Origin: Eledone cirrhosa
Taxonomy: Eukaryota
Assembly (NCBI GenBank): GCA_964016885.1
Contig: OZ024743.1
Location: 336,722,001-336,786,000 of the forward strand
Reading direction: 5' to 3'
DNA length: 64,000 nucleotides
The notes beneath the pieces are model-generated. The model was not told the DNA's origin. It saw only the letters and a program-made list of their open reading frames with translations, and made no database searches. Shown piece by piece: positions 31,942-61,617 of this stretch. Position 1 is the stretch's first letter. Each line of letters begins with the position of its first letter. A program made the position numbers and the translations under genes.

Positions 31942-34413
31942 ACCCCGTGACCAAGAAATACCGGGATGGCGGCCGACGGGGAATAGCCGTGTCTCTAGGG
32001 GAGAACGACCCCTCTAGTCTTGGTTGACACTCGTTCTAGAAGTGGTAACACGAAATGATTACCCCTTGGCGGATAAGGATAAAACGCGACAAAATAAAGT
32101 AAATGTCTAATGATAAAATCTCATACCGGATCGGCCGTCACCCGGGTAAAAAAGGGCCGCGTCCCTCAGAGAGGAACCAGACTGGGGTCGAAAAATCAGC
32201 TAATGGTTCAAACCTTCCCATCACTTCGGAGCTGGAGACCTCCCATAACCGGAATACTCCTACTGTTGGCCCTCCATGCTCACCACCAAGAAATCCAAAG
32301 AAAAAGAGAGAAAAATGGTCAAGGGAAGATAATAAAGAAGTCCTTGAGGCTTTCTACACTGCCATGTACTACCCATCAAATACATCGAATACAGAACAGA
32401 CATATATCAACTGGAAAAAGAAACATCCCGAAAACAGAGGCTATATTGACAGTAACAAACTAGCCAATATACGAAGAAATATTGTAAGAAAAAAGTTACT
32501 AACTGATATAGAAATTGATCAGATCAAGCTATTAGCACAAAGTCAGCGAAGGGAAAATGAAACATGTGTCAGTGAAAATGAGGTAAACTGTAACACTTCG
32601 AACCCCAGGGTTGAGGCGGAATCACTGGCAACAGAACAAATTAAAGAAAGGAGCGAAAAAGTGGAGGGAGTGCATGCTCAGGATGAAACTCCAAATGAAA
32701 ATAATGAGATCGTAAATGATAAAGAAATGAATGAGAATGAACTTGCCAACTTGAAGGATGAAATTATGATCGAATGGATGAAAATGAAAGAATCTGACAT
32801 GGGGCAACGAGACACCCTCCCTAAGATCCAGAACTCCAAACAGAACCACAAGATAATACACAAGACTAACATAATTCTCAAAAACATTATCATCACAAAC
32901 AAACTAAACATTACTGATTTAAATCATCTCTATTATGCATCGGCTAAAGTCACCACTCATTTATGTGGAGTGAAGATGAAAAAACAAAGGAATTCCCACA
33001 AGAAATCTACTTGGCAAGAGAACATCAATCGCCAAATAAACCTTCTCCGATCTGACATAGAAATTTTAACAAACTATAAAGTAGGTGAACATGTTAAACA
33101 AACTAAACTTAGAAAATTGAAAAAAAAGTACAGTATAAAATCAGCATGTGACAGAGACATGCTGATAGAAATAATCAAGCAAAAAGTGTCGGCCAAAGCT
33201 GCTCGTATAAGGTGCTTTGAAAAACGATCTAGATTATATAAGGACAATAATATGTTCAAAAATAACCAAAGAAACTTCTACAGAAAAATTGGTAAGTCAA
33301 CAATAACTGCTAAATCAATACCACCCAAGGAGGAAGTGCAAGAATTCTGGGAAAAGATCTGGGCCGAAGAAAAAGTTCATAACATACATGCCCCATGGAT
33401 AGACAGACAAATGAAAGATACAGCTCACCTTGAGGAACAAATATGGGAAAATATAACAGTTGAACAGTTGCGCTTGGCTCTAAGAAAAACCAGCAAATGG
33501 AAATCCCCAGGAAAAGACAAAATACAAAACTTTTGGATAAATGCCTTCACAGAGTCTCATGAGCTGTTAGCCCAACTTTACAATGAAATAGTTAAGGAGC
33601 CAGAAAAGATACCATCATGGCTAGTTAACGGCATTACATTCCTACTTCCGAAGAATGATGAGACAAACAATCCCAAAAATTACAGACCGATAACTTGCTT
33701 GACCACAATGTATAAATGTTAACATCAGTCCTAACTGAATACACATATGACCACCTGATAACAAATGACCTATTTCCCATTGAGCAGAAAGGGTGTAAAC
33801 GAGGCTCATATGGCTGTAAGGATCAGCTTCTGGTTAACAAAATGATACTGGAAGATTGTCATAATAGACACAAAAATCTATCGATTGCTTGGATAGATTA
33901 TAAAAAAGCATTCGATAGTTTGCAACACAGTTGGATTGAAAAATGTTTAGAGATTTTCAAAATATCCCCCGTTGTCAGGAGATTTTTGTCATTCAGTATG
34001 AAGACATGGAAAACGACACTCCTTTTGAATAGTGAAACAAAATCACTGGAAGCTGGAGAAGTTAATATTAATTGTGGAATTTTTCAGGGTGACTCTTTAT
34101 CACGGCTTTTATTCTGCATCGCACTTATACCATTAAGTAAAATGCTCAATGAAACAAAACATGGATATAAAGTCTATGACAAAACCATTAATCACTTGTT
34201 CTACATGGATGACCTGAAACTATTTTCAAAAAATGATGAACAATTGCAAGGGCTATTATCCACTGTGGAGCAGTTCAGTGATGACATTAAAATGGAGTTT
34301 GGACTAGATAAATGCGCCAAAGCAACATTCACCAGAGGAAAGCTGCTGAAGAGTTCAGACATTAATCTTGATCGGGGGAACGTGATAAGAGAACTTGATC
34401 AAGAAAAAACTTA
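31942..34413 (+). mobile_element. R4/Dong-like non-LTR element family B, 5' part (5' UTR, N-terminus, RT), interrupted at 34413
   Basis: ORFs 32103..33722 and 33716..34414 (one frameshift): 'WKSPGKDKIQNFW', 'YRPITCL', '[10 protein letters not shown]', 'GIFQGDSLS', 'HLFYMDDLKLF'; 5' boundary approximate. Confidence 0.9.
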
Positions 34414-34428
34414 GAAAGAGGCAACGAC

Positions 34429-34780
34429 TGGATGTGGCCTGCCCATTCGACACGAGAGTGCAAGAAAGGGAGAGGGAGAAAATTAAGCGATACCAGGACT
34501 TAAAGTGGGAGGTAAAAAGGATTTGGAACTGCCATGAAGTCAAAGTGGTCCCGATTGTCATAGGCGCACTAGGTACTATCTCAAAAAGTTTCCAGGGATG
34601 GTTAAAGAAAATTGGTCCTTTCACGCTTTTTGGAACGCTTCAAAAGACATGCTTGCTGGGAACAACAAGAACCCTCCGATACGTCCTGAATATCTGAGGC
34701 TGCAGGTAGTGGCTTGATATTCATCTCAACAAACTTTCCAGTTAACTAACATCAATGACTGAGACTCAAAGAGTAATAAC

Positions 34781-34825
<45 letters not shown>
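34429..34825 (+). mobile_element. R4/Dong-like family A 3' fragment with (TAA)n tail
   Basis: 'DVACPFDTRVQEREREKIKRYQDLKWE..TLRYVLNI'; 3' UTR matches 6762-6830. Confidence 0.92.
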
Positions 34826-34827
<2 letters not shown>

Positions 34828-35075
34828 TTTCTTTATTAACCACAAGGGTTTACATAAAGTAGACATTAAGGACAGTGCAGGACAATGCAGGACGGTACAA
34901 ATGGGCATTTCTGCGTGTAAAAAACAAAAACAGAGGATGTAACAAAAAATAACAATGAAAAATTCCCCAATAGGGGGCAGACTTCGGAGGGACATTTGTG
35001 GAGAAAGCCCAGTAAAAAGCCACAATGACCCTGACCACCAAGGCAAGTGCCCTCTCCCAGTTTTCCACCTTTAGT

Positions 35076-38000
35076 TTACAGATATATACACAGAGTCGGC
35101 CCATTCACTCGGGCCATTCTTGCTTCTCTCACCCATCTTTCAACAAAATGCTGGGAAGAGAGCACTTCCTTCTCTACTCTGATTTTCCTTTTCAAATGAA
35201 ATTTGAAAAAGTCAATCAGAGCATCACCGAAGAGGTAAGTGCTCGTCTTCAGCCCTTTCAAACGTGTCCACCATACTATCTCTTTCGCCATGGCCACCAG
35301 ACAGATAAAAACTGCCTGCCCTTCCCGGCTAAAGGAGGAGGGCGGGGCAATCCTCACGATAGACTCAGATGATAGCTGGATCCGTCCTAAACGCGACAGC
35401 AGGTGTTCGACATAAACCCACAAGTCAGCAATTTTCGGACACTGGACGAGTGCGTGCAGGACGGTTTCGTCGCCCTGCGCGCATCTCGGACATGCCCGGC
35501 TGACGGCACCTCCATGCCTGTAGAGTTTATCCCGAACTGGCAAGGCTCCTCGGTAGCACTGCCAGGCCAGAGATTTCTGGAAGTTGTCCATAGGCCCCGG
35601 CCCGAAAGTTCTTCCGAAGAGATTGGCTAGTTGATTTTCGTCGACGCCTAGAGTTTCCCCAAGTACGTCGTCGCTCTTCCCCTCCACTAATCCTCTATAG
35701 AACGCCGAGGTGGAGTTTCCACCGATCACATTGCCCGATTGGTCGAGGGCTGTGAGCGCCTGAAGACATTCCAGTCTCCAGGCGCTCCCTCTCGGTCTTC
35801 GCTTGACCCAGGACTGCAGCTCCGTCAAGGAAACGAGCTGGGGAAAAACGCGTCTAGCAAACGGCGACCACACCTGATCACCGTCGAGGAAGAGGTGGAG
35901 ATGTCGTAGCCTGAGCGCGTGCCTGCGCATCATCAGCCACGGCATGCCCAGCCCTCCACGTAGCGGGTGTTGACAACAGATGGACCGCCTGACCATCGGA
36001 GCACGTCCCTTCCACAAAAAGCGAAAGAGCAAACGCTCCAGCGCAGTCAGGCGAGGCTTAGGACAAGGTACGACGGTTAGGCGGTAGCAGATGACAGACG
36101 CGATGTACGCGTTAGCCACCTCCGCTCGACCTTTCAGGGATAGCTTCCTCTCCGCCCATTTCTGGGTGAGAGAAGCCACCCTGCTCGTCACCTCGTCCCA
36201 GTTTTTGTCCGTCTGGAGGTCCGGACCGAACCAGACCCCTAGCAATTTAACCGGTCCGTCCGTCCAGCGCCCGACGACGCTGTTGGACGGCATGGACCTG
36301 CCTCTCCAGGTGCCGAGCTGCAGGCCCACTGACTTTTCCTGGTTGATCATTGCTCCTGTCACCGCTTCGTATTCTCTTAGTGTAGTGCCGATCGCCTCGA
36401 TGTGTTTGGCGTTCGACACCACTACGGTGACATCGTCCGCATATGCTGACACGGATCTTCCGCATCCTAGTTCGCGCGGGACTCCCCTCAACGTCTCCAG
36501 TTTGTGCAGTAATGGCTCGAGAGTCAATACGTACAAGAGGGACGAGAGGGGACATCCTTGGCGGACCGAGCGCATGATGTTGAACGGTTCCGACAGGTGA
36601 CCGTTCACTCTCACCACAGAGCAGATGTCGCTGTGCATGGCAGCGATCCAGCCTCTGAAGACGGGCCCAAAGCCAGCCGCCCTCAGGACTGCCGCTAGGT
36701 AACGATGGTCGACCCTATCGAAAGCTTTCGACTGATCTAAATTGATCAAGGACCCACCCGTGCCAGGTTCCCTAGCTACCCTCTCTACGATGTATCGCAT
36801 GAGGTGGAGGTTGTCGTGGATGGATCTGTCGGGAATGGCGCATGTCTGCGCCTCTCCCACCAGACCACCAACGACAAGCGCCAACCTCTTTGCTAGCACC
36901 TTGGCCAAAATCTTAAACTCTGTGTTTAGCAGAGTTATGGGCCGGAAATTGTCTATGTTATCCCCCTTGTTCGGATCCTTTCTCAGCAGTGCCACCGCTC
37001 CTCGGCTCACAGAACTGGGAATTCTCCTGTTCTGTTGCCAGTTGCAGTAGACGTCCGCCAAGAGGCCTCCGAACAAGTCTGGCATCTGTACGTAAAGTTC
37101 ATAGGGCAGACCATCCAAACCAGGCGATTTACCCCTTGTGCAGCCAGTCATTGCCTCCCGTACTTCAGCGGCTGTTATCGGCTTTTCGCAACACTTCGCC
37201 TCAGTGGCCGAGAGCCGCGGCAGTCCGTCGAGGTAGACACTAAAGTCCATCCCTCTACTCGCCCCCCCGCTGCCCCCGAACAGCTGAGCGAAGTGTCGCT
37301 GAAAAGCTTCACACATTTGCCCGGGATCGAGTAGCATGCGCCCGTCGTGGTCCACCAAAGACCGGATCGTGGCTTTGTTGCCACGACGCGCCTCCGCCAC
37401 TCGGGCCCATTGAACGGCTTTCGTCCCCTCGTGTCTGAGAGCACGCACCCTAGCTCTGACAACGCAGCCTTCGTGCTTTGCATTGAAGAATTGGTCAAGG
37501 GCCAATTTCGCCGCAAGCACGTCGGTCGCAATGCCTTTGCTAAGCGCCTCGTCTAATTTTCTAACTAGTTCTCCCTCTGCTCTATTTTTCTCTATTGCTA
37601 AAGCCTTACTAAACCTAATCGATTCTATTCTAATCGCTCTTTTCAGAGCAAACCACCACTTGTTGTTGACGATGGCCCCCGTCAACGCCCGCTTAACTAG
37701 TTCGCTAATCCGGTCTGTGTAGGCCTTGCGCGCTGGTAAGGACGCGTTTAGCTTCCAGTAGCCGGGTCCTCGTCTATGAAGCCTATCTAAGTCAAGCACA
37801 CAGGTCACGAATTTGTGGTCCGTGTAGCTGACTATCTTGAATTGTGGACAGCCTATGCTAGACATATCTATTTCCCTACAAAATACTCTATCTAGATATG
37901 ATGTGGATGACCCTATGCGGTTTGTCCAAGTCCACATTGGCACATTCGGGAAATCCAATCGGTACCTGTCAGACAGTTCAAAACGCCTGAGCAGGTTGGT

Positions 38001-38495
38001 GAGGCTCTTGCACCCTCCACCCCTATCCGCTAATCCCACACAGTCCCAGCGTGCATCTAAGATCCCGTTCCAGTCGCCCACTAACACTAAAGAGCGGGAC
38101 GTTCCAAGAAAGGTCTCCAGACGCCGGAAGAAATCAGGCCGCCCTGCTCCTGTCGGGGCATAGACGGCCACTAGCCTGAAAGCTTGCCCGTCTCCGCTGG
38201 TCACGTCCAGCACCACCAGCTTACCCTCTGGGTCCAGGAAGATGGCCCGTATGGCGAGATCCAAACCTCTCCGAAAAAGCACAGCAACTCCTCCACCCGA
38301 TCCAGGACGGCTGGGAGATGCGTACACATCGTAGCCGCCGAAGATCGGTGCGAAGGCCCGTGCTTCGGAGATTCTGGTCTCGCTGATGGCCACTACATCT
38401 ATGTTTAGTGACCTGAGGTCGTTGAGCAGGTGACCCTGCTTCCATGACGACCCCAAGCCACGCGCATTTATGCTGCCTATTCTGAGTGAGGTCAT
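35076..38495 (-). CDS. ORF2: APE endonuclease + reverse transcriptase + C-terminal zinc motif (intact, 1139 aa)
   Basis: SINARGL, ISETRI, VYAP, GDWN, YLDRVF, TDHK; KSPGLDGLP, FRPITLLN, DQSKAFDRV, VRQGCPLS, YADD; CPRC..ETVLHALVQC. Confidence 0.97.
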   Translation of the reverse strand: MTSLRIGSINARGLGSSWKQGHLLNDLRSLNIDVVAISETRISEARAFAPIFGGYDVYASPSRPGSGGGVAVLFRRGLDLAIRAIFLDPEGKLVVLDVTSGDGQAFRLVAVYAPTGAGRPDFFRRLETFLGTSRSLVLVGDWNGILDARWDCVGLADRGGGCKSLTNLLRRFELSDRYRLDFPNVPMWTWTNRIGSSTSYLDRVFCREIDMSSIGCPQFKIVSYTDHKFVTCVLDLDRLHRRGPGYWKLNASLPARKAYTDRISELVKRALTGAIVNNKWWFALKRAIRIESIRFSKALAIEKNRAEGELVRKLDEALSKGIATDVLAAKLALDQFFNAKHEGCVVRARVRALRHEGTKAVQWARVAEARRGNKATIRSLVDHDGRMLLDPGQMCEAFQRHFAQLFGGSGGASRGMDFSVYLDGLPRLSATEAKCCEKPITAAEVREAMTGCTRGKSPGLDGLPYELYVQMPDLFGGLLADVYCNWQQNRRIPSSVSRGAVALLRKDPNKGDNIDNFRPITLLNTEFKILAKVLAKRLALVVGGLVGEAQTCAIPDRSIHDNLHLMRYIVERVAREPGTGGSLINLDQSKAFDRVDHRYLAAVLRAAGFGPVFRGWIAAMHSDICSVVRVNGHLSEPFNIMRSVRQGCPLSSLLYVLTLEPLLHKLETLRGVPRELGCGRSVSAYADDVTVVVSNAKHIEAIGTTLREYEAVTGAMINQEKSVGLQLGTWRGRSMPSNSVVGRWTDGPVKLLGVWFGPDLQTDKNWDEVTSRVASLTQKWAERKLSLKGRAEVANAYIASVICYRLTVVPCPKPRLTALERLLFRFLWKGRAPMVRRSICCQHPLRGGLGMPWLMMRRHALRLRHLHLFLDGDQVWSPFARRVFPQLVSLTELQSWVKRRPRGSAWRLECLQALTALDQSGNVIGGNSTSAFYRGLVEGKSDDVLGETLGVDENQLANLFGRTFGPGPMDNFQKSLAWQCYRGALPVRDKLYRHGGAVSRACPRCAQGDETVLHALVQCPKIADLWVYVEHLLSRLGRIQLSSESIVRIAPPSSFSREGQAVFICLVAMAKEIVWWTRLKGLKTSTYLFGDALIDFFKFHLKRKIRVEKEVLSSQHFVERWVREARMARVNGPTLCIYL

Positions 38496-38530
38496 GTTTA
38501 AAATAGAGTGGAAAAGATGGGAAAGACCAC

Positions 38531-40627
38531 TTACCGTACTTTTGGTAGAGGAGGGATGGTTTTTACATCCCTTTTCACTTGATCGTCTGGTGAAGGGACC
38601 GTTGAATCGTCCCTTCGGCTGGTCGTCGGCTCTTCTAAGAGAATGTCTGAATATACTCTTCGATTAATGGTTCCTCCTAGGTCCCTGAAATCACCAACTG
38701 CGTTGGGGAATTTCGTTTTAATGTTTGTGTATTGTTTCTGTGCTATTTTTAGCAGTCTTATGTTAGTTGGCGTTTTGATTGGTGCTGGTATTATGTAGTC
38801 CTGTTGTGAAATGTCTGTGTGTTCAATTATGTAAGTCATTAGTTTCTTGTTGTGTGTGTTTATTGCCGTGCATTTGTTTTTCTGGGGGTGGGGTGCGGTT
38901 CTGCTATTTTCTTGTCGTTGTTGCTGGGTGTGTGTGTTTTGTTGTTGTGTTTGCGATGTTGGTGCTTGTGGTGGTGGTGTTGAAGGTGTTGTTGGCGGTG
39001 GGGTTGTCGCCGGTGGTGATGGTGGTGCTGGTGTGGGTGGTGATGGTGTTGGTGGTGTTGCTGCTGTGGGTCTCTTTGCAGTAGACTTTACCCTTTTCTC
39101 ATTTCTTTCCTCCCTTTTCAAAGGCGACGATGCGCTGCTTCTGCGTTTGTGCCTTCTTGCGACCTTTTGCCATCCCTCTCCCACCTCACACTCCATGTCT
39201 GATTCTGTAAGGTCGGGGAGGGGTACCAGCTCCACTCTTTCACTTGTTGTTGTTGGTGATGTTTGCACTGGAGTCTCTGTTGCAGCTGCATTTGGTATTG
39301 CTGTTGTTGTTGTTAATATTTCCACTGCTGCTGCTGTCTTTGATTTCCGTGGAGTGGGTATGGGTGCCACGGACCTATCGTTCCTGGTTGCCGCTTGTCC
39401 TGTTGCTGGTAGCCGTGGAGCCGGATTCGGAAGGAGGGGGGTTTTCTCCTTTCTCAGGGTCTTCTCGTTGCAGAAGGCCCTGAGGTGAGTCTTCGATCCA
39501 CAGCGAAAGCATTTCGGGCGTTTGCCCTCAACACTTATGGGCAGTTGAGTGCCGTTATCGAAGTCTATCACATCCGGGATAGCTTCGATGCACTCCTGGT
39601 TGGTTTGGATTAGCATCTCAATGGAGGAGCCGACCCAATCTTCTCTTACTTTTTTCTGTACTTGCAGTACAGTTGTTTTGTCCTCGATTCCGACGAGGAC
39701 AGACGCGGCCAGCCAAGAAGGGGTCATTCCGGGGGGGACGTGGGTCAGTTTGACCCTCACAATTTTTTGCCCACAGTAGGAGGGCACCAACACCATTTCC
39801 TCGCTCCTTAGGGTCACTACTGATTGGGCCTTTGCCTCCTGGGGTGTGGCAAAAAGTACGTCTACGGTGGCATATTTTTTGCCTCGGGTGATGTGCGTTT
39901 TCCGCTGCCACACAGACCCCAAGGCTTTTTGTATTTGGGCCTCTGTGGCTCTTTCCACCCTACGGGATTTTGTACTTACTGTACGGTACGTGACCGTACA
40001 GTGCTCTTGGGTTTCGAAAAAATTTTTCGCTGCCTTGCAGATTGCTCGGTGTCCGTTCTTTGTCACCATCTTCTTCGCTTCCTCTAATTCCTCATTTGTT
40101 ATGAGGATTGTTTCCAAGTTTTTCGCAATACCTGCAAATGAGATTGGTTTTTCTCTGCTGTTGTTGTTGTCGTCAGAGCTGCTGGTACTTTTGTTGTTGC
40201 TGCAGGTACTACGACTACTGCCTCCGCCGCTGTTGCTGTGGTTGTTGTTGGTGTTGCTGCTGCTAATGCTGTTGTTGTTTATGCTGCTGGTGATGCTGTT
40301 GCGGCTGCTACTGTTGTTTTCATTGTCACTGTTGCTGTTGTTATTACGGCTGCTACTGCTATTATTCCTGACGTCAGACGAATGAACTGGGTTTTCGTAT
40401 TTCCCGCACACCTGTTTCGTCGCTGTCGTCGTCGTCGTGGAGAAACCTTGCACGCTTTGCACGAGACTTTTCTTTTCTTTCGTCACTTGCGAAAGAGAAG
40501 GGAGGGAGAGAGACACATTTAAAGAAGGGAGGGAGAGAGACAATCTTCTCTCTGCTGTAGTGATGATTGAGGAAGAAGAAGACGGAATGAGTGGGAGTGA
40601 CGTATGAAATTTCTTTTTCGTAGCCAT
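38531..40627 (-). CDS. ORF1 gag-like protein, single CCHC knuckle (698 aa)
   Basis: CFRCGSKTHLRAFC; N/S-rich and P/T-rich low-complexity tracts; directly upstream of ORF2. Confidence 0.9.
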   Translation of the reverse strand: MATKKKFHTSLPLIPSSSSSIITTAERRLSLSLPSLNVSLSLPSLSQVTKEKKSLVQSVQGFSTTTTTATKQVCGKYENPVHSSDVRNNSSSSRNNNSNSDNENNSSSRNSITSSINNNSISSSNTNNNHSNSGGGSSRSTCSNNKSTSSSDDNNNSREKPISFAGIAKNLETILITNEELEEAKKMVTKNGHRAICKAAKNFFETQEHCTVTYRTVSTKSRRVERATEAQIQKALGSVWQRKTHITRGKKYATVDVLFATPQEAKAQSVVTLRSEEMVLVPSYCGQKIVRVKLTHVPPGMTPSWLAASVLVGIEDKTTVLQVQKKVREDWVGSSIEMLIQTNQECIEAIPDVIDFDNGTQLPISVEGKRPKCFRCGSKTHLRAFCNEKTLRKEKTPLLPNPAPRLPATGQAATRNDRSVAPIPTPRKSKTAAAVEILTTTTAIPNAAATETPVQTSPTTTSERVELVPLPDLTESDMECEVGEGWQKVARRHKRRSSASSPLKREERNEKRVKSTAKRPTAATPPTPSPPTPAPPSPPATTPPPTTPSTPPPQAPTSQTQQQNTHTQQQRQENSRTAPHPQKNKCTAINTHNKKLMTYIIEHTDISQQDYIIPAPIKTPTNIRLLKIAQKQYTNIKTKFPNAVGDFRDLGGTINRRVYSDILLEEPTTSRRDDSTVPSPDDQVKRDVKTIPPLPKVR

Positions 40628-40842
40628 GTTGTTTTTTGTTTAAAATGAAATTTTGGGTACAAAACCCCAATAACTGATTATTTAACCCCGAAGGGCCAAA
40701 TAACGGACAGAAAGACCCCTCTCACGAGGAGGAGGGTGTCTTTATCAACAATTTGGTTCAAGTTTTAAACAATTTACAATTGTTTTAACGGTTAAAAATT
40801 ACTATACCTTACAGAGCCGAGCCTCCGTCAACCATGGCATTC

Positions 40843-40901
<59 letters not shown>

Positions 40902-50667: not shown

Positions 50668-50702
50668 GTTTAAAATAGAGTGGAAAAGATGGGAAAGACC
50701 AC

Positions 50703-52799
50703 TTACCGTATTTTTGGTAGAGGAGGGATGGTTTTTACATCCCTTTTCACTTGATCGTCTGGTGAAGGGACCGTTGAATCGTCCCTTCGGCTGGTCGTCG
50801 GCTCTTCTAAGAGAATGTCTGAATATACTCTTCGATTAATGGTTCCTCCTAGGTCCCTGAAATCACCAACTGCGTTGGGGAATTTCGTTTTAATGTTTGT
50901 GTATTGTTTCTGTGCTATTTTTAGCAGTCTTATGTTAGTTGGCGTTTTGATTGGTGCTGGTATTATGTAGTCCTGTTGTGAAATGTCTGTGTGTTCAATT
51001 ATGTAAGTCATTAGTTTCTTGTTGTGTGTGTTTATTGCCGTGCATTTGTTTTTCTGGGGGTGGGGTGTGGTTCTGCTATTTTCTTGTCGTTGTTGCTGGG
51101 TGTGTGTGTTTTGTTGTTGTGTTTGCGATGTTGGTGCTTGTGGTGGTGGTGTTGAAGGTGTTGTTGGCGGTGGGGTTGTCGCCGGTGGTGATGGTGGTGC
51201 TGGTGTGGGTGGTGATGGTGTTGGTGGTGTTGCTGCTGTGGGTCTCTTTGCAGTAGACTTTACCCTTTTCTCATTTCTTTCCTCCCTTTTCAAAGGCGAC
51301 GATGCGCTGCTTCTGCGTTTGTGCCTTCTTGAGACCTTTTGCCATCCCTCTCCCACCTCACACTCCATGTCTGATTCTGTAAGGTCGGGGAGGGGTACCA
51401 GCTCCACTCTTTCACTTGTTGTTGTTGGTGATGTTTGCACTGGAGTCTCTGTTGCAGCTGCATTTGGTATTGCTGTTGTTGTTGTTAATATTTCCACTGC
51501 TGCTGCTGTCTTTGATTTCCGTGGAGTGGGTATGGGTGCCACGGACCTATCGTTCCTGGTTGCCGCTTGTCCTGTTGCTGGTAGCCGTGGAACCGGATTC
51601 GGGAGGAGGGGGGTTTTCTCCTTTCTCAGGGTCTTCTCGTTGCAGAAGGCCCTGAGGTGAGTCTTCGATCCACAGCGAAAGCATTTCGGGCGTTTGCCCT
51701 CAACACTTATGGGCAGTTGAGTGCCGTTATCGAAGTCTATCACATCCGGGATAGCTTCGATGCACTCCTGGTTGGTTTGGATTAGCATCTCAATGGAGGA
51801 GCCGACCCAATCTTCTCTTACTTTTTTCTGTACTTGCAGTACAGTTGTTTTGTCCTCGATTCCGACGAGGACAGACGCGGCCAGCCAAGAAGGGGTCATT
51901 CCGGGGGGGACGTGGGTCAGTTTGACCCTCACAATTTTTTGCCCGCAGTAGGAGGGCACCAACACCATTTCCTCGCTCCTTAGGGTCACTACTGATTGGG
52001 CCTTTGCCTCCTGGGGTGTGGCAAAAAGTACGTCTACGGTGGCGTATTTTTTGCCTCGGGTGATGTGCGTTTTCCTCTGCCACACAGACCCCAAGGCTTT
52101 TTGTATTTGGGCCTCTGTGGCTCTTTCCACCCTACGGGATTTTGTACTTACTGTACGGTACGTGACCGTACAGTGCTCTTGGGTTTCGAAAAAATTTTTC
52201 GCTGCCTTGCAGATTGCTCGGTGTCCGTTCTTTGTCACCATCTTCTTCGCTTCCTCTAATTCCTCATTTGTTATGAGGATTGTTTCCAGGTTTTTCGCAA
52301 TACCTGCAAATGAGATTGGTTTTTCTCTGCTGTTGTTGTTGTCGTCAGAGCTGCTGGTACTTTTGTTGTTGCTGCAGGTACTACGACTACTGCCTCCGCC
52401 GCTGTTGCTGTGGTTGTTGTTGGTGTTGCTGCTGCTAATGCTGTTGTTGTTTATGCTGCTGGTGATGCTGTTGCGGCTGCTACTGTTGTTTTCATTGTCA
52501 CTGTTGCTGTTGTTATTACGGCTGCTACTGCTATTATTCCTGACGTCAGACGAATGAACTGGGTTTTCGTATTTCCCGCACACCTGTTTCGTCGCTGTCG
52601 TCGTCGTCGTGGAGAAACCTTGCACGCTTTGCACGAGACTTTTCTTTTCTTTCGTCGCTTGCGAAAGAGAAGGGAGGGAGAGAGACACATTTAAAGAAGG
52701 GAGGGAGAGAGACAATCTTCTCTCTGCTGTAGTGATGATTGAGGAAGAAGAAGACGGAATGAGTGGGAGTGACGTATGAAATTTCTTTTTGGTAGCCAT
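50703..52799 (-). CDS. ORF1 copy 3
   Basis: MATKKKF start by analogy with copies 1/2 (ORF track extends to a non-ATG start at 52832). Confidence 0.88.
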   Translation of the reverse strand: MATKKKFHTSLPLIPSSSSSIITTAERRLSLSLPSLNVSLSLPSLSQATKEKKSLVQSVQGFSTTTTTATKQVCGKYENPVHSSDVRNNSSSSRNNNSNSDNENNSSSRNSITSSINNNSISSSNTNNNHSNSGGGSSRSTCSNNKSTSSSDDNNNSREKPISFAGIAKNLETILITNEELEEAKKMVTKNGHRAICKAAKNFFETQEHCTVTYRTVSTKSRRVERATEAQIQKALGSVWQRKTHITRGKKYATVDVLFATPQEAKAQSVVTLRSEEMVLVPSYCGQKIVRVKLTHVPPGMTPSWLAASVLVGIEDKTTVLQVQKKVREDWVGSSIEMLIQTNQECIEAIPDVIDFDNGTQLPISVEGKRPKCFRCGSKTHLRAFCNEKTLRKEKTPLLPNPVPRLPATGQAATRNDRSVAPIPTPRKSKTAAAVEILTTTTAIPNAAATETPVQTSPTTTSERVELVPLPDLTESDMECEVGEGWQKVSRRHKRRSSASSPLKREERNEKRVKSTAKRPTAATPPTPSPPTPAPPSPPATTPPPTTPSTPPPQAPTSQTQQQNTHTQQQRQENSRTTPHPQKNKCTAINTHNKKLMTYIIEHTDISQQDYIIPAPIKTPTNIRLLKIAQKQYTNIKTKFPNAVGDFRDLGGTINRRVYSDILLEEPTTSRRDDSTVPSPDDQVKRDVKTIPPLPKIR

Positions 52800-53012
52800 G
52801 TTTTTTTGTTTAAAATGAAATTTTGGGTACAAAACCCCAATAACTGGTTATTTAACCCCGAAGGGCCAAATAACGGACAGAAAGACCCCTCTCACGAGGA
52901 GGAGGGTGTCTTTATCAACAATTTGGTTCAAGTTTTAAACAATTTACAATTGTTTTAACGGTTAAAAATTACTATACCTTACAGAGCCGAGCCTCCGTCA
53001 ACCATGGCATTC

Positions 53013-53044
<32 letters not shown>

Positions 53045-53304
53045 TTTCTTTATTAACCACAAGGGTTTACATAAAGTAGACATTAAGGACAGTGCAGGAC
53101 AATGCAGGACGGTACAAATGGGCATTTCTGCGTGTAAAAAAACAAAAACAGAGGATGTAACAAAAATAACAATGAAAATAACAATGAAAAATTCCCCAAT
53201 AGGGGGGAGACTTCGGAGGGACATTTGTGGAGAAAGCCCAGTAAAAAGCCACAATGACCCTGACCACCAAGGCAAGTGCCCTCTCCCAGTTTTCCACCTT
53301 TAGT

Positions 53305-56300
53305 TTACAGATATATACTCAGAGTCGGCCCATTCACTCGGGCCATTCTTGCTTCTCTCACCCATCTTTCAACAAAATGCTGGGAAGAGAGCACTTCCTT
53401 CTCTACTCTGATTTTCCTTTTCAAATGAAATTTGAAAAAGTCAATCAGAGCATCACCGAAGAGGTAAGTGCTCGTCTTCAGCCCTTTCAAACGTGTCCAC
53501 CATACTATCTCTTTCGCCATGGCCACCAGACAGATAAAAACTGCCTGCCCTTCCCGGCTAAAGGAGGAGGGCGGGGCAATCCTCACGATAGACTCAGATG
53601 ATAGCTGGATCCGTCCTAAACGCGACAGCAGGTGTTCGACATAAACCCACAAGTCAGCAATTTTCGGACACTGGACGAGTGCGTGCAGGACGGTTTCGTC
53701 GCCCTGCGCGCATCTCGGACATGCCCGGCTGACGGCACCTCCATGCCTGTAGAGTTTATCCCGAACTGGCAAGGCTCCTCGGTAGCACTGCCAGGCCAGA
53801 GATTTCTGGAAGTTGTCCATAGGCCCTGGCCCGAAAGTTCTTCCGAAGAGATTGGCTAGTTGATTTTCGTCGACGCCTAGAGTTTCCCCAAGTACGTCGT
53901 CGCTCTTCCCCTCCACTAATCCTCTATAGAACGCCGAGGTGGAGTTTCCACCGATCACATTGCCCGATTGGTCGAGGGCTGTGAGCGCCTGAAGACATTC
54001 CAGTCTCCAGGCGCTCCCTCTCGGTCTTCGCTTGACCCAGGACTGCAGCTCCGTCAAGGAAACGAGCTGGGGAAAAACGCGTCTAGCAAACGGCGACCAC
54101 ACCTGATCACCGTCGAGGAAGAGGTGGAGATGTCGTAGCCTGAGCGCGTGCCTGCGCATCATCAGCCACGGCATGCCCAGCCCTCCACGTAGCGGGTGTT
54201 GACAACAGATGGACCGCCTGACCATCGGAGCACGTCCCTTCCACAAAAAGCGAAAGAGCAAACGCTCCAGCGCAGTCAGGCGAGGCTTAGGACAAGGTAC
54301 GACGGTTAGGCGGTAGCAGATGACAGACGCGATGTACGCGTTAGCCACCTCCGCTCGACCTTTCAGGGATAGCTTCCTCTCCGCCCATTTCTGGGTGAGA
54401 GAAGCCACCCTGCTCGTCACCTCGTCCCAGTTTTTGTCCGTCTGGAGGTCCGGACCGAACCAGACCCCTAGCAATTTAACCGGTCCGTCCGTCCAGCGCC
54501 CGACGACGCTGTTGGACGGCATGGACCTGCCTCTCAAGGTGCCGAGCTGCAGGCCCACTGACTTTTCCTGGTTGATCATTGCTCCTGTCACCGCTTCGTA
54601 TTCTCTTAGTGTAGTGCCGATCGCCTCGATGTGTTTGGCGTTCGACACCACTACGGTGACATCGTCCGCATATGCTGACACGGATCTTCCGCATCCTAGT
54701 TCGCGCGGGACTCCCCTCAACGTCTCCAGTTTGTGCAGTAATGGCTCGAGAGTCAATACGTACAAGAGGGACGAGAGGGGACATCCTTGGCGGACCGAGC
54801 GCATGATGTTGAACGGTTCCGACAGGTGACCGTTCACTCTCACCACAGAGCAGATGTCGCTGTGCATGGCAGCGATCCAGCCTCTGAAGACGGGCCCAAA
54901 GCCAGCCGCCCTCAGGACTGCCGCTAGGTAACGATGGTCGACCCTATCGAAAGCTTTCGACTGATCTAAATTGATCAAGGACCCACCCGTGCCAGGTTCC
55001 CTAGCTACCCTCTCTACGATGTATCGCATGAGGTGGAGGTTGTTGTGGATGGATCTGTCGGGAATGGCGCATGTCTGCGCCTCTCCCACCAGACCACCAA
55101 CGACAAGCGCCAACCTCTTTGCTAGCACCTTGGCCAAAATCTTAAACTCTGTGTTTAGCAGAGTTATGGGCCGGAAATTGTCTATGTTATCCCCCTTGTT
55201 CGGATCCTTTCTCAGCAGTGCCACCGCTCCTCGGCTCACAGAACTGGGAATTCTCCCGTTCTGTTGCCAGTTGCAGTAGACGTCCGCCAAGAGGCCTCCG
55301 AACAAGTCTGGCATCTGTACGTAAAGTTCATAGGGCAGACCATCCAAACCAGGCGATTTACCCCTTGTGCAGCCAGTCATTGCCTCCCGTACTTCAGCGG
55401 CTGTTATCGGCTTTTCGCAACACCTCGCCTCAGTGGCCGAGAGCCGCGGCAGCCCGTCGAGGTAGACACTAAAGTCCATCCCTCTACCCGGCCCCCCGCT
55501 GCCCCCGAACAGCTGAGCGAAGTGTCGCTGAAAAGCTTCACACATTTGCCCGGGATCGAGTAGCATGCGCCCGTCGTGGTCCACCAAAGACCGGATCGTG
55601 GCTTTGTTGCCACGACGCGCCTCCGCCACTCGGGCCCATTGAACGGCTTTCGTCCCCTCGTGTCTGAGAGCACGCACCCTAGCTCTGACAACGCAGCCTT
55701 CGTGCTTTGCATTGAAGAATTGGTCAAGGGCCAATTTCGCCGCAAGCACGTCGGTCGCAATGCCTTTGCTAAGCGCCTCGTCTAATTTTCTAACTAGTTC
55801 TCCCTCTGCTCTATTTTTCTCTATTGCTAAAGCCTTACTAAACCTAATCGATTCTATTCTAATCGCTCTTTTCAGAGCAAACCACCACTTGTTGTTGACG
55901 ATGGCCCCCGTCAACGCCCGCTTAACTAGTTCGCTAATCCGGTCTCTGTAGGCCTTGCGCGCTGGTAAGGACGCGTTTAGCTTCCAGTAGCCGGGTCCTC
56001 GTCTATGAAGCCTATCTAAGTCAAGCACACAGGTCACGAATTTGTGGTCCGTGTAGCTGACTATCTTGAATTGTGGACAGCCTATGCTAGACCTATCTAT
56101 TTCCCTACAAAATACTCTATCTAGATATGATCTGGATGACCCTATGCGGTTTGTCCAAGTCCACATTGGCACATTCGGGAAATCCAATCGGTACCTGTCA
56201 GACAGTTCAAAACGCCTGAGCAGGTTGGTGAGGCTCTTGCACCCTCCACCCCTATCCGCTAATCCCACACAGTCCCAGCGTGCATCTAAGATCCCGTTCC

Positions 56301-56724
56301 AGTCGCCCACTAACACTAAAGAGCGGGACGTTCCAAGAAAGGTCTCCAGACGCCGGAAGAAATCAGGCCGCCCTGCTCCTGTCGGGGCATAGACGGCCAC
56401 TAGCCTGAAAGATTGCCCGTCTCCGCTGGTCACGTCCAGCACCACCAGCTTACCCTCTGGGTCCAGGAAGATGGCCCGTATGGCGAGATCCAAACCTCTC
56501 CGAAAAAGTACAGCAACTCCTCCACCGGATCCAGGACGGCTGGGAGATGCGTACACATCGTAGCCGCCGAAGATCGGTGCGAAGGCCCGTGCTTCGGAGA
56601 TTCTGGTCTCGCTGATGGCCACTACATCTATGTTTAGTGACCTGAGGTCGTTGAGCAGGTGACCCTGCTTCCATGACGACCCCAAGCCACGCGCATTTAT
56701 GCTGCCTATTCTGAGTGAGGTCAT
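53305..56724 (-). CDS. ORF2 copy 4 (intact)
   Basis: 1139 aa APE-RT. Confidence 0.97.
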   Translation of the reverse strand: MTSLRIGSINARGLGSSWKQGHLLNDLRSLNIDVVAISETRISEARAFAPIFGGYDVYASPSRPGSGGGVAVLFRRGLDLAIRAIFLDPEGKLVVLDVTSGDGQSFRLVAVYAPTGAGRPDFFRRLETFLGTSRSLVLVGDWNGILDARWDCVGLADRGGGCKSLTNLLRRFELSDRYRLDFPNVPMWTWTNRIGSSRSYLDRVFCREIDRSSIGCPQFKIVSYTDHKFVTCVLDLDRLHRRGPGYWKLNASLPARKAYRDRISELVKRALTGAIVNNKWWFALKRAIRIESIRFSKALAIEKNRAEGELVRKLDEALSKGIATDVLAAKLALDQFFNAKHEGCVVRARVRALRHEGTKAVQWARVAEARRGNKATIRSLVDHDGRMLLDPGQMCEAFQRHFAQLFGGSGGPGRGMDFSVYLDGLPRLSATEARCCEKPITAAEVREAMTGCTRGKSPGLDGLPYELYVQMPDLFGGLLADVYCNWQQNGRIPSSVSRGAVALLRKDPNKGDNIDNFRPITLLNTEFKILAKVLAKRLALVVGGLVGEAQTCAIPDRSIHNNLHLMRYIVERVAREPGTGGSLINLDQSKAFDRVDHRYLAAVLRAAGFGPVFRGWIAAMHSDICSVVRVNGHLSEPFNIMRSVRQGCPLSSLLYVLTLEPLLHKLETLRGVPRELGCGRSVSAYADDVTVVVSNAKHIEAIGTTLREYEAVTGAMINQEKSVGLQLGTLRGRSMPSNSVVGRWTDGPVKLLGVWFGPDLQTDKNWDEVTSRVASLTQKWAERKLSLKGRAEVANAYIASVICYRLTVVPCPKPRLTALERLLFRFLWKGRAPMVRRSICCQHPLRGGLGMPWLMMRRHALRLRHLHLFLDGDQVWSPFARRVFPQLVSLTELQSWVKRRPRGSAWRLECLQALTALDQSGNVIGGNSTSAFYRGLVEGKSDDVLGETLGVDENQLANLFGRTFGPGPMDNFQKSLAWQCYRGALPVRDKLYRHGGAVSRACPRCAQGDETVLHALVQCPKIADLWVYVEHLLSRLGRIQLSSESIVRIAPPSSFSREGQAVFICLVAMAKEIVWWTRLKGLKTSTYLFGDALIDFFKFHLKRKIRVEKEVLSSQHFVERWVREARMARVNGPTLSIYL

Positions 56725-56759
56725 GTTTAAAATAGAGTGGAAAAGATGGGAAAGACCAC

Positions 56760-58850
56760 TTACCGTATTTTTGGTAGAGGAGGGATGGTTTTTACATCCC
56801 TTTTCACTTGATCGTCTGGTGAAGGGACCGTTGAATCGTCCCTTCGGCTGGTCGTCGGCTCTTCTAAGAGAATGTCTGAATATACTCTTCGATTAATGGT
56901 TCCTCCTAGGTCCCTGAAATCACCAACTGCGTTGGGGAATTTCGTTTTAATGTTTGTGTATTGTTTCTGTGCTATTTTTAGCAGTCTTATGTTAGTTGGC
57001 GTTTTGATTGGTGCTGGTATTATGTAGTCCTGTTGTGAAATGTCTGTGTGTTCAATTATGTAAGTCATTAGTTTCTTGTTGTGTGTGTTTATTGCCGTGC
57101 ATTTGTTTTTCTGGGGGTGGGGTGTGGTTCTGCTATTTTCTTGTCGTTGTTGCTGGGTGTGTGTGTTTTGTTGTTGTGTTTGCGATGTTGGTGCTTGTGG
57201 TGTTGAAGGTGTTGTTGGCGGTGGGGTTGTCGCCGGTGGTGATGGTGGTGCTGGTGTGGGTGGTGATGGTGTTGGTGGTGTTGCTGCTGTGGGTCTCTTT
57301 GCAGTAGACTTTACCCTTTTCTCATTTCTTTCCTCCCTTTTCAAAGGCGACGATGCGCTGCTTCTGCGTTTGTGCCTTCTTGAGACCTTTTGCCATCCCT
57401 CTCCCACCTCACACTCCATGTCTGATTCTGTAAGGTCGGGGAGGGGTACCAGTTCCACTCTTTCACTTGTTGTTGTTGGTGATGTTTGCACTGGAGTCTC
57501 TGTTGCAGCTGCATTTGGTATTGCTGTTGTTGTTGTTAATATTTCCACTGCTGCTGCTGTCTTTGATTTCCGTGGAGTGGGTATGGGTGCCACGGACCTA
57601 TCGTTCCTGGTTGCCGCTTGTCCTGTTGCTGGTAGCCGTGGAACCGGATTCGGGAGGAGGGGGGTTTTCTCCTTTCTCAGGGTCTTCTCGTTGCAGAAGG
57701 CCCTGAGGTGAGTCTTCGATCCACAGCGAAAGCATTTCGGGCGTTTGCCCTCAACACTTATGGGCAGTTGAGTGCCGTTATCGAAGTCTATCACATCCGG
57801 GATAGCTTCGATGCACTCCTGGTTGGTTTGGATTAGCATCTCAATGGAGGAGCCGACCCAATCTTCTCTTACTTTTTTCTGTACTTGCAGTACAGTTGTT
57901 TTGTCCTCGATTCCGACGAGGACAGACGCGGCCAGCCAAGAAGGGGTCATTCCGGGGGGGACGTGGGTCAGTTTGACCCTCACAATTTTTTGCCCGCAGT
58001 AGGAGGGCACCAACACCATTTTCTCGCTCCTTAGGGTCACTACTGATTGGGCCTTTGCCTCCTGGGGTGTGGCAAAAAGTACGTCTACGGTGGCGTATTT
58101 TTTGCCTCGGGTGATGTGCGTTTTCCTCTGCCACACAGACCCCAAGGCTTTTTGTATTTGGGCCTCTGTGGCTCTTTCCACCCTACGGGATTTTGTACTT
58201 ACTGTACGGTACGTGACCGTACAGTGCTCTTGGGTTTCGAAAAAATTTTTCGCTGCCTTGCAGATTGCTCGGTGTCCGTTCTTTGTCACCATCTTCTTCG
58301 CTTCCTCTAATTCCTCATTTGTTATGAGGATTGTTTCCAGGTTTTTCGCAATACCTGCAAATGAGATTGGTTTTTCTCTGCTGTTGTTGTTGTCGTCAGA
58401 GCTGCTGGTACTTTTGTTGTTGCTGCAGGTACTACGACTACTGCCTCCGCCGCTGTTGCTGTGGTTGTTGTTGGTGTTGCTGCTGCTAATGCTGTTGTTG
58501 TTTATGCTGCTGGTGATGCTGTTGCGGCTGCTACTGTTGTTTTCATTGTCACTGTTGCTGTTGTTATTACGGCTGCTACTGCTATTATTCCTGACGTCAG
58601 ACGAATGAACTGGGTTTTCGTATTTCCCGCACACCTGTTTCGTCGCTGTCGTCGTCGTCGTGGAGAAACCTTGCACGCTTTGCACGAGACTTTTCTTTTC
58701 TTTCGTCGCTTGCGAAAGAGAAGGGAGGGAGAGAGACACATTTAAAGAAGGGAGGGAGAGAGACAATCTTCTCTCTGCTGTAGTGATGATTGAGGAAGAA
58801 GAAGACGGAATGAGTGGGAGTGACGTATGAAATTTCTTTTTGGTAGCCAT
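56760..58850 (-). CDS. ORF1 copy 4 (2-codon deletion in Pro tract)
   Basis: TPSTPQAP versus TPSTPPPQAP. Confidence 0.88.
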   Translation of the reverse strand: MATKKKFHTSLPLIPSSSSSIITTAERRLSLSLPSLNVSLSLPSLSQATKEKKSLVQSVQGFSTTTTTATKQVCGKYENPVHSSDVRNNSSSSRNNNSNSDNENNSSSRNSITSSINNNSISSSNTNNNHSNSGGGSSRSTCSNNKSTSSSDDNNNSREKPISFAGIAKNLETILITNEELEEAKKMVTKNGHRAICKAAKNFFETQEHCTVTYRTVSTKSRRVERATEAQIQKALGSVWQRKTHITRGKKYATVDVLFATPQEAKAQSVVTLRSEKMVLVPSYCGQKIVRVKLTHVPPGMTPSWLAASVLVGIEDKTTVLQVQKKVREDWVGSSIEMLIQTNQECIEAIPDVIDFDNGTQLPISVEGKRPKCFRCGSKTHLRAFCNEKTLRKEKTPLLPNPVPRLPATGQAATRNDRSVAPIPTPRKSKTAAAVEILTTTTAIPNAAATETPVQTSPTTTSERVELVPLPDLTESDMECEVGEGWQKVSRRHKRRSSASSPLKREERNEKRVKSTAKRPTAATPPTPSPPTPAPPSPPATTPPPTTPSTPQAPTSQTQQQNTHTQQQRQENSRTTPHPQKNKCTAINTHNKKLMTYIIEHTDISQQDYIIPAPIKTPTNIRLLKIAQKQYTNIKTKFPNAVGDFRDLGGTINRRVYSDILLEEPTTSRRDDSTVPSPDDQVKRDVKTIPPLPKIR

Positions 58851-59086
58851 GTTTTTTTGTTTAAAATGAAATTTTGGGTACAAAACCCCAATAACTGGTT
58901 ATTTAACCCCGAAGGGCCAAATAACGGACAGAAAGACCCCTCTCACGAGGAGGAGGGTGTCTTTATCAACAATTTGGTTCAAGTTTTAAACAATTTACAA
59001 TTGTTTTAACGGTTAAAAATTACTATACCTTACAGAGCCGAGCCTCCGTCAACCATGGCATTCAATAATAATAATAATAATAATAA

Positions 59087-60113
59087 GAGGTCTTATCAGC
59101 ATAGAGGACTGTGTTCAGATGGAGAAAAACAACCTATACAAATACGTGACCTATAGTAAGGAGCCAATGCTCAAAACTGTACTGAAGGAGGGGACAGTAG
59201 GCCAGGGGATGTCCAAGGAGGAAATAACATCAAGGAGGAAGAGCAGCCTTAAGGGAAAATCCCTTCATAGTACCTTCTTTGAGAAAACTGAATTTAGAGA
59301 TCCACAGACATGGAACTGGTTGAGAAGAGGAGACCTCAAAAAGGCTACAGAAGGAATGATAATGGCTGCGCAGGAGCAGGCCCTCAAAACGAAGTGGTTG
59401 AAGCACCATATTTACAAGGAGGAGGCTATCCCACTGTGCAGGATCTGTGGAGAGAGAGAGGAGACTGTGGCTCACATTGTGTCCGAGTGTAAACACCTAG
59501 CCCAGACCCACTATAAGGGCTGGAGACACGATGTGATGGGCAGGGTGATCCACTGGCACCTGTGCAAAGTAAACAATTTACCACATTCTGAGAAATGGTA
59601 TGAGCATAGGCCGGAGGCGGTGATGGAGAACAATCAGGTGAAGGTGCTGTGGGATTTTAGGATACAGACGGACAAAAAACTGGAACACAATAGACCTGAC
59701 CTGGTGGTTGTGGACAAAGAAAAAAGATCGTGTCTGATTGTGGATGTGGCCTGCCCGTTCGACACGAGAGTGCAAGAGAAGGAGAGGGAGAAAATTAACC
59801 GATACCAGGACCTAAAGTGGGAGGTGAAAAGGATTTGGAACTGCCATGAAGTCAAAGTGATCCCGATTGTCATAGGCGCACTGGGGACTATCTCCAAAAG
59901 TTTCCAGGGATGGTTAAAGAAAATCGGCCCCTTCACGCTTTTTGGAACGCTTCAAAAGGCATGCTTGCTTGGAACAGCAAGAACCCTCCGATACGTCCTG
60001 AATATCTGAGGCTGCAGGTAGTGGCTTGATATTTATTCCAACGGACTTTCCAGTTAACCAACATCAATGACTGAGATTCAAGGAATAACAACAACAATAA
60101 TAATAATAATAAC
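59087..60113 (+). mobile_element. R4/Dong-like family A 3' fragment (CCHC + RLE) with (AAC/AAT)n tail
   Basis: ORF 59119..60009: 'CRICGEREETVAHIVSEC', 'RPDLVVVDK..IVDVACPFD..EKINRYQDL'. Confidence 0.93.
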
Positions 60114-61617
60114 AAGAGAACTTGATCAAGAAAAAACTTACAAATATCTAGGTGTTTGTGAAGGAGACGGAATCAAGCACTCGACAATGAGGGAAAGGAT
60201 AAGGAAGGAATGTTACCGCAGAGTAAGAGCAATCTTAAGAACGGATTTGAATTCAAGGAATAGGATCGATGCCATAAACACGCTTGCCGTACCAGTAGTA
60301 ACCTACAGTTACAATGTCATCAACTGGTCAAGCACAGAGATCCGTAGGCTCAATACAAAAATTCGAAAATTCTTAACCATGCACAGAATGCATCACCCTA
60401 AGGCAGATACAGATAGAATATATCTCCCTAGGAAAGAAGGAGGACGTGGGTTAATCCAGTTAGACATTGCGTTGAAAACTGCAACAATTGGATTATATAC
60501 ATATCTAAGGGAATCACATGATTGGATGATCAAACTCGTTTTGAAACACGAAAGCATCAAAAGATCATATTCCATTACAAAAGATGCACAAAGATACAGT
60601 AATGGACTACAAATTTCAGAAATCCCATTTACTGCTGAAATGGAAAACACAGAAAAGGCAAAGCAGGTAAAAGTAACTGCAAAGAAAGAACTGCTACAGA
60701 AACTGGCTAAGAAATGGCAAGAAAAGCCTCTGTATTTAAAATACCCAGAACGAGCTAACAATCCTGATGTTGACAAAACTTTAACCCATCAGTGGTTGGC
60801 ATCCTCTGGACTGAAATCGGAGACTGAAGGACTGCTTATATCAGCACAAGATCAGTGTCTGCCAACATAAAATTACCAAGCCAACATAATAAAAAATGGA
60901 TGCAGCCCATTATGCCGTGTATGTAAAAAACAACCAGAGACCATTGCCCATATAATTTCAATGTGCAGTCCTATAGCTCCAACCGAATACCTAAACAGGC
61001 ATGACAGAGCTGCACAATACATACATTGGATAATGTGTAAGCATTTTGACCTGCCCCATCAAAAGAATTGGTGGGAGAATCAACCACCTCCCATACTTGA
61101 AAAAGATCACATCTCAATCTTGTGGAACTTTAGCATCCAAACAGACAGAAAAATAGATGCAAATAGACCTGATATAATATTGAAGGACTTTAAAAAGAGG
61201 GTATGCCTGCTAATTGATATGTCCGTTCCAATAGACAAGAATGTATCTATAAAAACATTTGAAAAATTGAGCAAGTATAAGGACCTGGAGATAGAAATTG
61301 GAAAAATGTGGAAATTGAGAACTAAAACAATACCAATGGTTGTAGGCGCTCTGGGAATGATACCTAAGGGGTCTAATGATTACTTATCGCAAATCCCAGG
61401 AAACCCGCGTATAGGAGAAATACAAAAGATAGTTCTAATGGGAACTGCCCATATACTAAGGAAGATTCTGTCAATATAAGTACATCACTAAACACTAAAG
61501 ATGCATGTGTGAGTATGTATGTTCTTTCTTGAACATGGCGGACCTTGTTGTCTCTTGAGGTCACTGGTTGTGACTTGGTGATAACTCGTATTAACATAAA
61601 GCAAGATAAATGCAACT

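Follow-up and report, generated by a model that had tools for sequence, protein, structure and literature searches.

A 64,000-nt stretch of the Eledone cirrhosa genome (assembly GCA_964016885.1, 3.0 Gb; contig OZ024743.1), hereafter the window, contains a long interspersed nuclear element (LINE) that is split by other LINEs, four of which form a tandem array. The split element, a member of what is termed here family B, lies on the plus strand and begins after an (AAT)30 tract on its 5′ side (31608..31699, plus strand). Its left part, slightly 5′-truncated, occupies 31700..34413 and carries two pieces of an open reading frame (ORF) with reverse transcriptase (RT) sequence, at 32103-33722 and 33716-34414. 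Its right part (60141..61618, plus strand) carries the thumb, a CCHC finger, a restriction-like endonuclease (RLE) and the 3′ untranslated region. A 27-bp sequence stands at the end of the left part (34387..34413) and directly before the right part (60114..60140), both on the plus strand. The first-pass annotation reported this repeat as bracketing 25.7 kb, and indeed both copies are exact and 25,700 bp lie between them, of which 24,097 bp belong to the four 6.0-kb elements of the array. Neither strand of the window has a further match to the 27-mer within seven mismatches, and the chance expectation of such an exact repeat is ~5e-11. Removal of the insert by script restores a single frame, ...VIRELDQEKT/YKYLGV..., the rejoining that had been predicted. 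The left junction, of family B with the first inserted piece, is unique in the assembly.

The insert has the anatomy that was first described for it: a piece of a second family (A), an (AAT)n run, four minus-strand LINEs (T1-T4), AAT units, another A piece and an AAC/AAT tail. The first A piece, A1 (34414..34773, plus strand), is 5′-truncated. Its first 15 nt are family-A sequence that normally lies 2,056 nt upstream of the point where A1 resumes with the A 3′ end, a 5′ junction like a template jump or a deletion. The A1 tail at 34774..34825 (plus strand) is the (AAT)n landing pad. T1 (34826..40842) is full length, with open frames for ORF1 (702 aa) and ORF2 (1195 aa; apurinic/apyrimidinic endonuclease (APE), RT and zf-RVT). 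T2 (40900..46929), preceded by (AAT)19, has a frameshift in ORF2. T3 (46984..53012), preceded by (AAT)18, and T4 (53043..59063), preceded by (AAT)10 and followed by ~7.7 AAT units, are both full length with open ORFs. A2 (59087..60087, plus strand) is a 5′-truncated A piece of a younger sub-lineage, whose frame carries a CCHC finger and a PD-(D/E)xK-like nuclease; its AAC/AAT tail (60088..60113, plus strand) adjoins the right 27-mer. The nest continues outside the repeat (61619..64000) with (TAA)13, a third A piece (61659-62206, plus strand), (AAT)18 and an older, 95% Tx1-like copy on the minus strand that runs past the window end. Family B thus itself sits inside a TAA nest, between (AAT)30 and (TAA)13; further A and Tx1-like pieces follow throughout the 20 kb fetched beyond the window. 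The host copy is dead from two breaks other than the insertion, a frameshift near 33716-33722 and an in-frame stop at 60868-60870.

By architecture and target, A and B are R4/Dong-like LINEs, with RT and a restriction-like nuclease. A Pfam profile search found RVT_1 and no Exo_endo_phos. The nearest solved relatives of the B RT are R2 proteins (2e-14, vs 2e-4 for L1), R2 proteins are also the best solved relatives of the A C-terminus (9e-4), and A and B are 42% identical over the C-terminal 200 aa. A CCHC finger and a PD-(D/E)xK-type nuclease after the RT are visible as motifs in the translations of both. The literature describes Dong/R4 elements with a single ORF, an RT with a C-terminal restriction-like nuclease and a (TAA)n target (PMC7998251, PMC3812793, PMC1635306), and Dong of Bombyx mori, DongAg, DongBg and the ostracod Dong1/2 share this architecture and target with A and B, which lie within (TAA)n and run into it at their ends. 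The SANT/Myb-like N-terminal domain described for R4/Dong in PMC7998251 gave no Pfam match in A or B. Insertion into (TAA)n with the TAA strand as sense is found for both families: among the 22 B copies compared (see below), all 17 matched by an end motif run into AAT repeats at their 3′ ends, and nearly all A 3′ ends judged by eye do so (one of the sets covered 27 of 30 loci), the loci L078 and L090 being exceptions.

T1-T4 are, from their predicted proteins, L1-group LINEs. ORF1 shows a CCHC knuckle (CX2CX4HX4C) in translation, and ORF2 has an N-terminal APE, an RT and a C-terminal zinc finger; the best solved relative of ORF2 is human L1 ORF2p (1e-52, vs 2e-21 for R2). The label Tx1 comes from the first-pass annotation, where it rested on architecture; we take it to be plausible. 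For the family as a whole, 80 copies were compared, a non-random sample chosen by 5′-end identity, mostly from the largest contigs, out of roughly 1,000 candidates. Every one is followed by AATAATAAT, i.e. (AAT)3 or more, and AATAAT precedes 75. A strict (AAT)n target and a strand rule hold family-wide, and the target strand is opposite to that of A and B. The family is very young and abundant: the T4 5′ end has at least 905 candidate matches, many of them tandem, with 100% identity in 40 of the 40 that were scored, and ORF2 is open in 60 of the 80 full-length copies. About 1,000 candidates (lower bounds 905-1049) of 6 kb each amount to ~0.2% of the 3.0 Gb, and the effect on genome size looks modest.

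Two observations belong beside this family. The older 95% Tx1-like copies next to the window end (G000:C4:336.786-336.806 Mb, L055-L056) match the young family over the 3′ 3.77 kb only and have a different 5′ region. A short element with an end resembling the Tx1-like 3′ end occurs in (AAT)n, in the same orientation, at L063, L080, L085, L142, L155 and in one spacer of the array C2_166; it is probably a short interspersed element using the same target.

Are the four copies at this locus four insertions? T1/T2 and T3/T4 differ by 22 diagnostic substitutions and form separate lineages, a division with which the tree agrees; T3 shows fewer substitutions against a copy on a different contig, C1 (3), than against T4 (5). 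Since T1 and T3/T4 stem from different source lineages, at least two and probably three separate Tx1-like insertions took place. T2 stands apart. It shows no substitution against T1 over the 5′ 5.1 kb and has seven alleles in common with T1 alone, yet differs by seven substitutions in the 3′ 1 kb, and over this 3′ part it is nearer to outside copies (2-3 substitutions) than to T3/T4 (4). T2 is thus a chimera, its 5′ part from T1 and its 3′ part from another haplotype. The first-pass claim of five more insertions as independent events consequently does not hold, T2 having been part-copied from T1.

The pattern is not confined to the window. Of 39 adjacent pairs of Tx1-like copies, 11 share an identical 5′ sequence of at least 2 kb, against 7 of 3043 pairs taken from different loci; for the 3′ side the figures are 4 of 39 and 16 of 3043, and shared tracts lie preferentially on the 5′ side (Wilcoxon p=0.03). 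Neighbouring copies share 47 of 74 doubleton alleles. When the one fully identical adjacent pair is set aside, eight of ten chimeric pairs have a 3′ part that did not come from the right neighbour, or have no right neighbour. The spacers tell a similar story. In six arrays with imperfect spacers (C1_441, C2_124, C1_234, C1_118, C2_187 and C3_316), a stretch of 42-258 bp other than AAT reappears behind at least two copies, and it starts at the copy 5′ end. In C1_441 (10 of 10 spacers) and C2_124 (5 of 5), and likewise in the other four arrays, the spacer restarts at the previous 5′ end and ends at varied AAT positions. Less clear are a 58-bp piece found in only one C2_166 spacer and two spacers at L154 that match only partly. 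The simplest reading of these sequences would be that complementary DNA (cDNA) is primed at the AAT downstream of a resident copy and finished on that copy.

The strongest competitor to such a switch of template is recombination after the fact. The 27-bp repeat would still be a real target-site duplication (TSD), but the array would have grown by ordinary insertions followed by unequal crossover or gene conversion, and T2 would be a meiotic recombinant of T1 with a copy on another allele. For R1 arrays, the published model invokes unequal exchange following double insertion, and the sequence produced by a crossover between an insertion allele and a pre-insertion allele does not differ from that left by a template switch. 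Three observations weigh against completion on the neighbour. Two of the ten chimeras, C2_166_3 and C2_124_5, are patchworks that match both neighbours (0 and 2 differences), as unequal crossover predicts; the one fully identical pair among the 39 (C1_234_3/4) is also what it predicts; and in the window the spacers of 19, 18 and 10 units exceed the last one (7.7), which spacer re-copying does not foresee, so that slippage or an added tail is needed. Against recombination as the sole agent, the spacers of C1_441 and C2_124 would call for a crossover after nearly every insertion, whole-unit duplicates are rare at 1 in 39, and the 5′ bias of shared tracts is not accounted for. Unequal crossover leads to identical products and clearly plays a part as well, and the sequence of one assembly cannot fully separate the two routes. 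That the array arose by ordinary insertions and recombination alone we consider rather unlikely, though by no means negligible. The general proposal, that an (AAT)n-specific Tx1-like LINE routinely completes its insertions by a switch from RNA to the neighbouring copy, turning 5′-truncated cDNAs into full-length recombinants with a re-copied landing pad, in self-repairing, recombining trains seeded by the tails of an unrelated Dong-like family, is put forward tentatively, at slightly less than an even chance.

Some further features of arrays deserve mention. The ten-copy array C1_441 (G000:C1:441.09-441.14 Mb, L041-L046), with a 51-bp imperfect spacer, has a last copy without its 3′ 3.9 kb, and a 3′-less older copy follows an A tail at L078; such copies hint at internal priming. 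The arrays C2_124 (L162-L167) and C1_234 (L168-L172), on different contigs, have similar compound spacers of AAT, A, AT and CA runs, suggesting an origin from a shared simple-repeat element. As to the idea of a mobilised dimer, the two spacer sequences differ in detail and each recurs in its own array only.

Does the 27-bp repeat represent a true TSD? For family B, the comparison set was built from the other copies that best matched either half of the split element, nine for the left and 13 for the right. All 22 copies hold the 27-mer once, each in the empty context (19 exactly, two with one mismatch and one with a one-base deletion); a family consensus with the 27-mer present twice, which would have explained the repeat otherwise, is thus not what is found. 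The exact repeat, its single occurrence in empty sites and a 5′ junction derived from family A all support the TSD interpretation. At the 3′ junction the tail adjoins GAT/AAG, which is close to the AAT/AAT target. The length of 27 bp is near that of TSDs of other RLE elements, given as 22 bp for EhSINE1 and 20 bp for reptile Utopia, and was counted in favour. The two halves are of one family, as had been supposed, with mean divergences from the 22 copies of 2.0% (left) and 2.6% (right), and their private changes are compatible (8/1399 for the left and 13/1395 for the right; p=0.29). Membership of one sub-lineage is a different matter, as B alleles are mosaic and the comparison of halves has little power. 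Taken together, the repeat is very probably a true TSD.

Several points count against a single, interrupted B copy. At three other loci, (AAT)n is immediately followed by a 5′-truncated B whose first base is that of the right TSD copy, so that the right part could be an independent copy; it is also further from the family majority than the left part (22 vs 12 differences, p=0.12). A second off-target A insertion, cleanly flanked by a TSD, did not turn up; a narrow search pattern for A ends with short tails matched two loci, and neither of them is such a case. Four public runs, whose short contigs are not assignable to the locus, showed no empty or intermediate allele; no listed piece from them spans the junction, and no public run contained half of seven sampled words.

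In an alternative reading, the left part would be a 3′-deleted B, for example through insertion of A1 into B's own tail with loss of 1.5 kb, and the right part a later, independent, 5′-truncated B in the A2 tail, the 27-bp overlap being due to chance. Two of the three same-start loci lie directly behind an A tail, the locus C3_160 holds a 3′-cut B copy joined to A, and the right part carries slightly more changes. The coincidence, on the other hand, would be a rare one. Of 2,937 B matches at the site, those at ~35 loci begin after (AAT)4 at no more than 30 nt from it, and at ~9 loci the overlap with the 27-mer reaches 12 nt or more, as counted by eye among the 100/109 matches listed, which gives a rate of ~0.3%. 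The junction at the same-start loci is an AAT|AAG microhomology and that in the window AAC|AAG, and two independent events are required. A false TSD is therefore judged improbable. The same-start loci are not copies of the present locus, to judge by their differing tails and upstream elements and a similarity of 95-96%; no B piece ending at the left-TSD position occurs in the 20-28 kb fetched upstream of them. L078, examined as an off-target A insertion into a Tx1-like copy, was set aside: its A starts in an AAT run, and the Tx1-like piece merely lacks its 3′ end. At C3_160 (G000:C3:160.70 Mb, L196-L198), B pieces overlap by 255 bp around A and Tx1-like inserts, with two substitutions and a 12-bp deletion in the overlap (by eye), and the right piece has the same first base as its counterpart in the window. 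Either a second instance, with a long TSD, or two copies may be involved.

The first-pass annotation went further and proposed that the TAA tail of one small A insertion seeded the later ones, in a feed-forward route to genome expansion with a readable order of events. That tails serve as landing pads is borne out. Within 450 bp upstream of the first young full-length Tx1-like copy at 40 loci, there is an A 3′ end at 13, the window being one of these, and a B 3′ end at 4; the rest have another Tx1-like 5′ end (4) or other sequence (19). With an A or B tail as the starting point at 17 of the 40 loci, tail-seeding is common, but this locus is no special case and the principle is not a new one. 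As for the order, B first and A1 second can be read from structure, A1 having the A-derived 5′ junction and being the most diverged insert. The place of A2 relative to T1-T4, and the order among the latter, cannot be read in this way because pure AAT spacers hide the inner TSDs. Private alleles, i.e. those unseen in the sampled relatives, number 21/2794 in B, 3/347 in A1 (nearest relative 8 away) and 2/1001 in A2, and per 6 kb 9 in T1, 9 in T2, 4 in T4 and 0 in T3; such counts are small and depend on sampling. The order B, A1, A2, T1, T2, T3/T4 is likely, with divergence only weakly suggesting the part beyond A1.

Two simpler accounts of the array fare less well. All four Tx1-like copies could be independent full-length insertions, with T1 and T2 from one unsampled source lineage. 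Dispersed copies can indeed be near-identical (2 substitutions between L093 and L099, and the 3 between T3 and the C1 copy), and the sample covers 80 of roughly 1,000 candidates. Such a lineage would need to explain why T2 equals T1 over 5.1 kb and departs from it by seven substitutions in the last 1 kb, and why seven alleles common to T1 and T2 occur in none of 76 outside copies, even though these include 12 full-length ones chosen for an exact match to the T1 5′ end; the nearest outside copy to the T1/T2 haplotype is 21 away. The sharing of doubleton alleles by adjacent copies elsewhere also speaks against it, and independent origin appears quite improbable. An array inflated or haplotype-switched by the assembler is least probable of all: near-identical 6-kb units are hard to assemble and no read data bridged the locus, but the four copies all differ (5-31 substitutions), carry alleles of dispersed copies and have spacers of different lengths, and the chimera pattern recurs across several arrays.

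What sequence of events could have produced the locus? A short family-A copy, A1, would have inserted off-target in B, the A nuclease nicking at GAT/AAG, which resembles its AAT/AAT target, and would have duplicated 27 bp and left a TAA tail. A2 could then have landed in the A1 tail on the same strand, and Tx1-like copies, primed from the AAT strand, on the opposite one. Every Tx1-like insertion leaves AAT on both sides, so the landing pad persists. T2 would have started as ~1 kb of new reverse transcription and been completed by a switch onto the adjacent T1 DNA, a switch that would also re-copy the spacer; at other loci unequal crossover contributes to array growth. The account as a whole, an off-target A1 with a 27-bp TSD, a reused TAA tail and a T2 finished on T1, is considered probable.

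How much of this is new? Dong on (TAA)n, nesting, tandem arrays and target-regenerating double insertion are already known. In contrast to the Dong elements cited above, an APE-type element uses the same pad as the two families here, and one copy of A lies off-target inside B. The Tx1 clade (Tx1L, Keno, Kibi, Koshi and crocodilian families; PMC4494074, PMC3812793) resembles T1-T4 in having two ORFs, APE and RT, L1-group affinity and a strict microsatellite target. The targets given there are (TC)n for Kibi, (TTC)n for Koshi and (TTCC)n/(TTTC)n for the crocodilian families, whereas T1-T4 target (AAT)n/(ATT)n, on the strand opposite to the one used by Dong. Neither a Tx1 element on (AAT)n nor neighbour-templated array growth was found in open-access literature text. 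A repeat annotation of octopus (2026) lists Dong-R4 and L1-Tx1 families as recently active, and the word 'nested' is absent from its main text.

Double insertion, in which an insertion keeps and regenerates the target, was described for tandem transposable elements together with the Drosophila R1 array; it leads to head-to-tail arrays with target-copy spacers, with later unequal exchange (McGurk & Barbash, bioRxiv 10.1101/158386). Most non-LTR (long terminal repeat) tandems there are 5′-truncated; the arrays examined here, sampled by 5′ end, are nearly all full-length. They further differ in their mixed sources, in their 5′-biased chimeras and in spacers that are re-copied from the 5′ end of the preceding copy and reach 258 bp. 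Templated or chimeric L1 insertions, formed by a switch resembling synthesis-dependent strand annealing, have been reported from human tumours, where they are rare (22 cases, with templates below 250 bp; bioRxiv 10.1101/2024.08.27.596794), and homology-driven recombination of L1 cDNA intermediates is reported in PMC13526784. In these cases the cDNA leaves its RNA, pairs with nearby homologous DNA and duplicates a segment, as proposed here. The difference is that in Eledone this would be a routine germline route, with kilobases copied from the neighbour and full-length products.

Other features of the window are briefly noted. An older A copy at ~4400-7250 (82% to A2) ends in (AAT)n, tail to tail with a 72% Tx1-like 3′ end; the A-tail/Tx1-like pattern thus existed in an earlier generation too. 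Direct repeats of 655 bp (98% identical) lie at 11695-12348 and 13400-14052, each copy beside a (TA)n run. Long inverted repeats at 14688-16880 and 17929-19547 (~1,000 bp at 96% and 640 bp at 97%), whose interior holds AT-rich tandem repeats, look like a foldback-type DNA element. A plus-strand open frame of 626 aa at 28582-30462 has RT-like motifs and a C-terminal GIY-YIG-like motif, with no Pfam match at 0.001; these motifs suggest a Penelope-like element. Direct repeats of 99% identity ending in (AT)n are present at 1712-1851/2177-2316 (140 bp) and 30511-30690/31104-31283 (180 bp).

Taken alone, the split of family B is an unremarkable, if clean, nested insertion. Such nests are frequent in this genome and for the most part obey targeting preferences already known, so the feature, though real, is largely explained by them, and its interest rests on the mechanism of array growth, not on the TSD. 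If neighbour-templated completion is the default, target-specific LINEs could escape 5′ truncation, their main source of dead copies. Haplotypes would then be shuffled locally, the full-length tandem trains would be explained, and the formation of 5′ junctions would become testable with natural markers.

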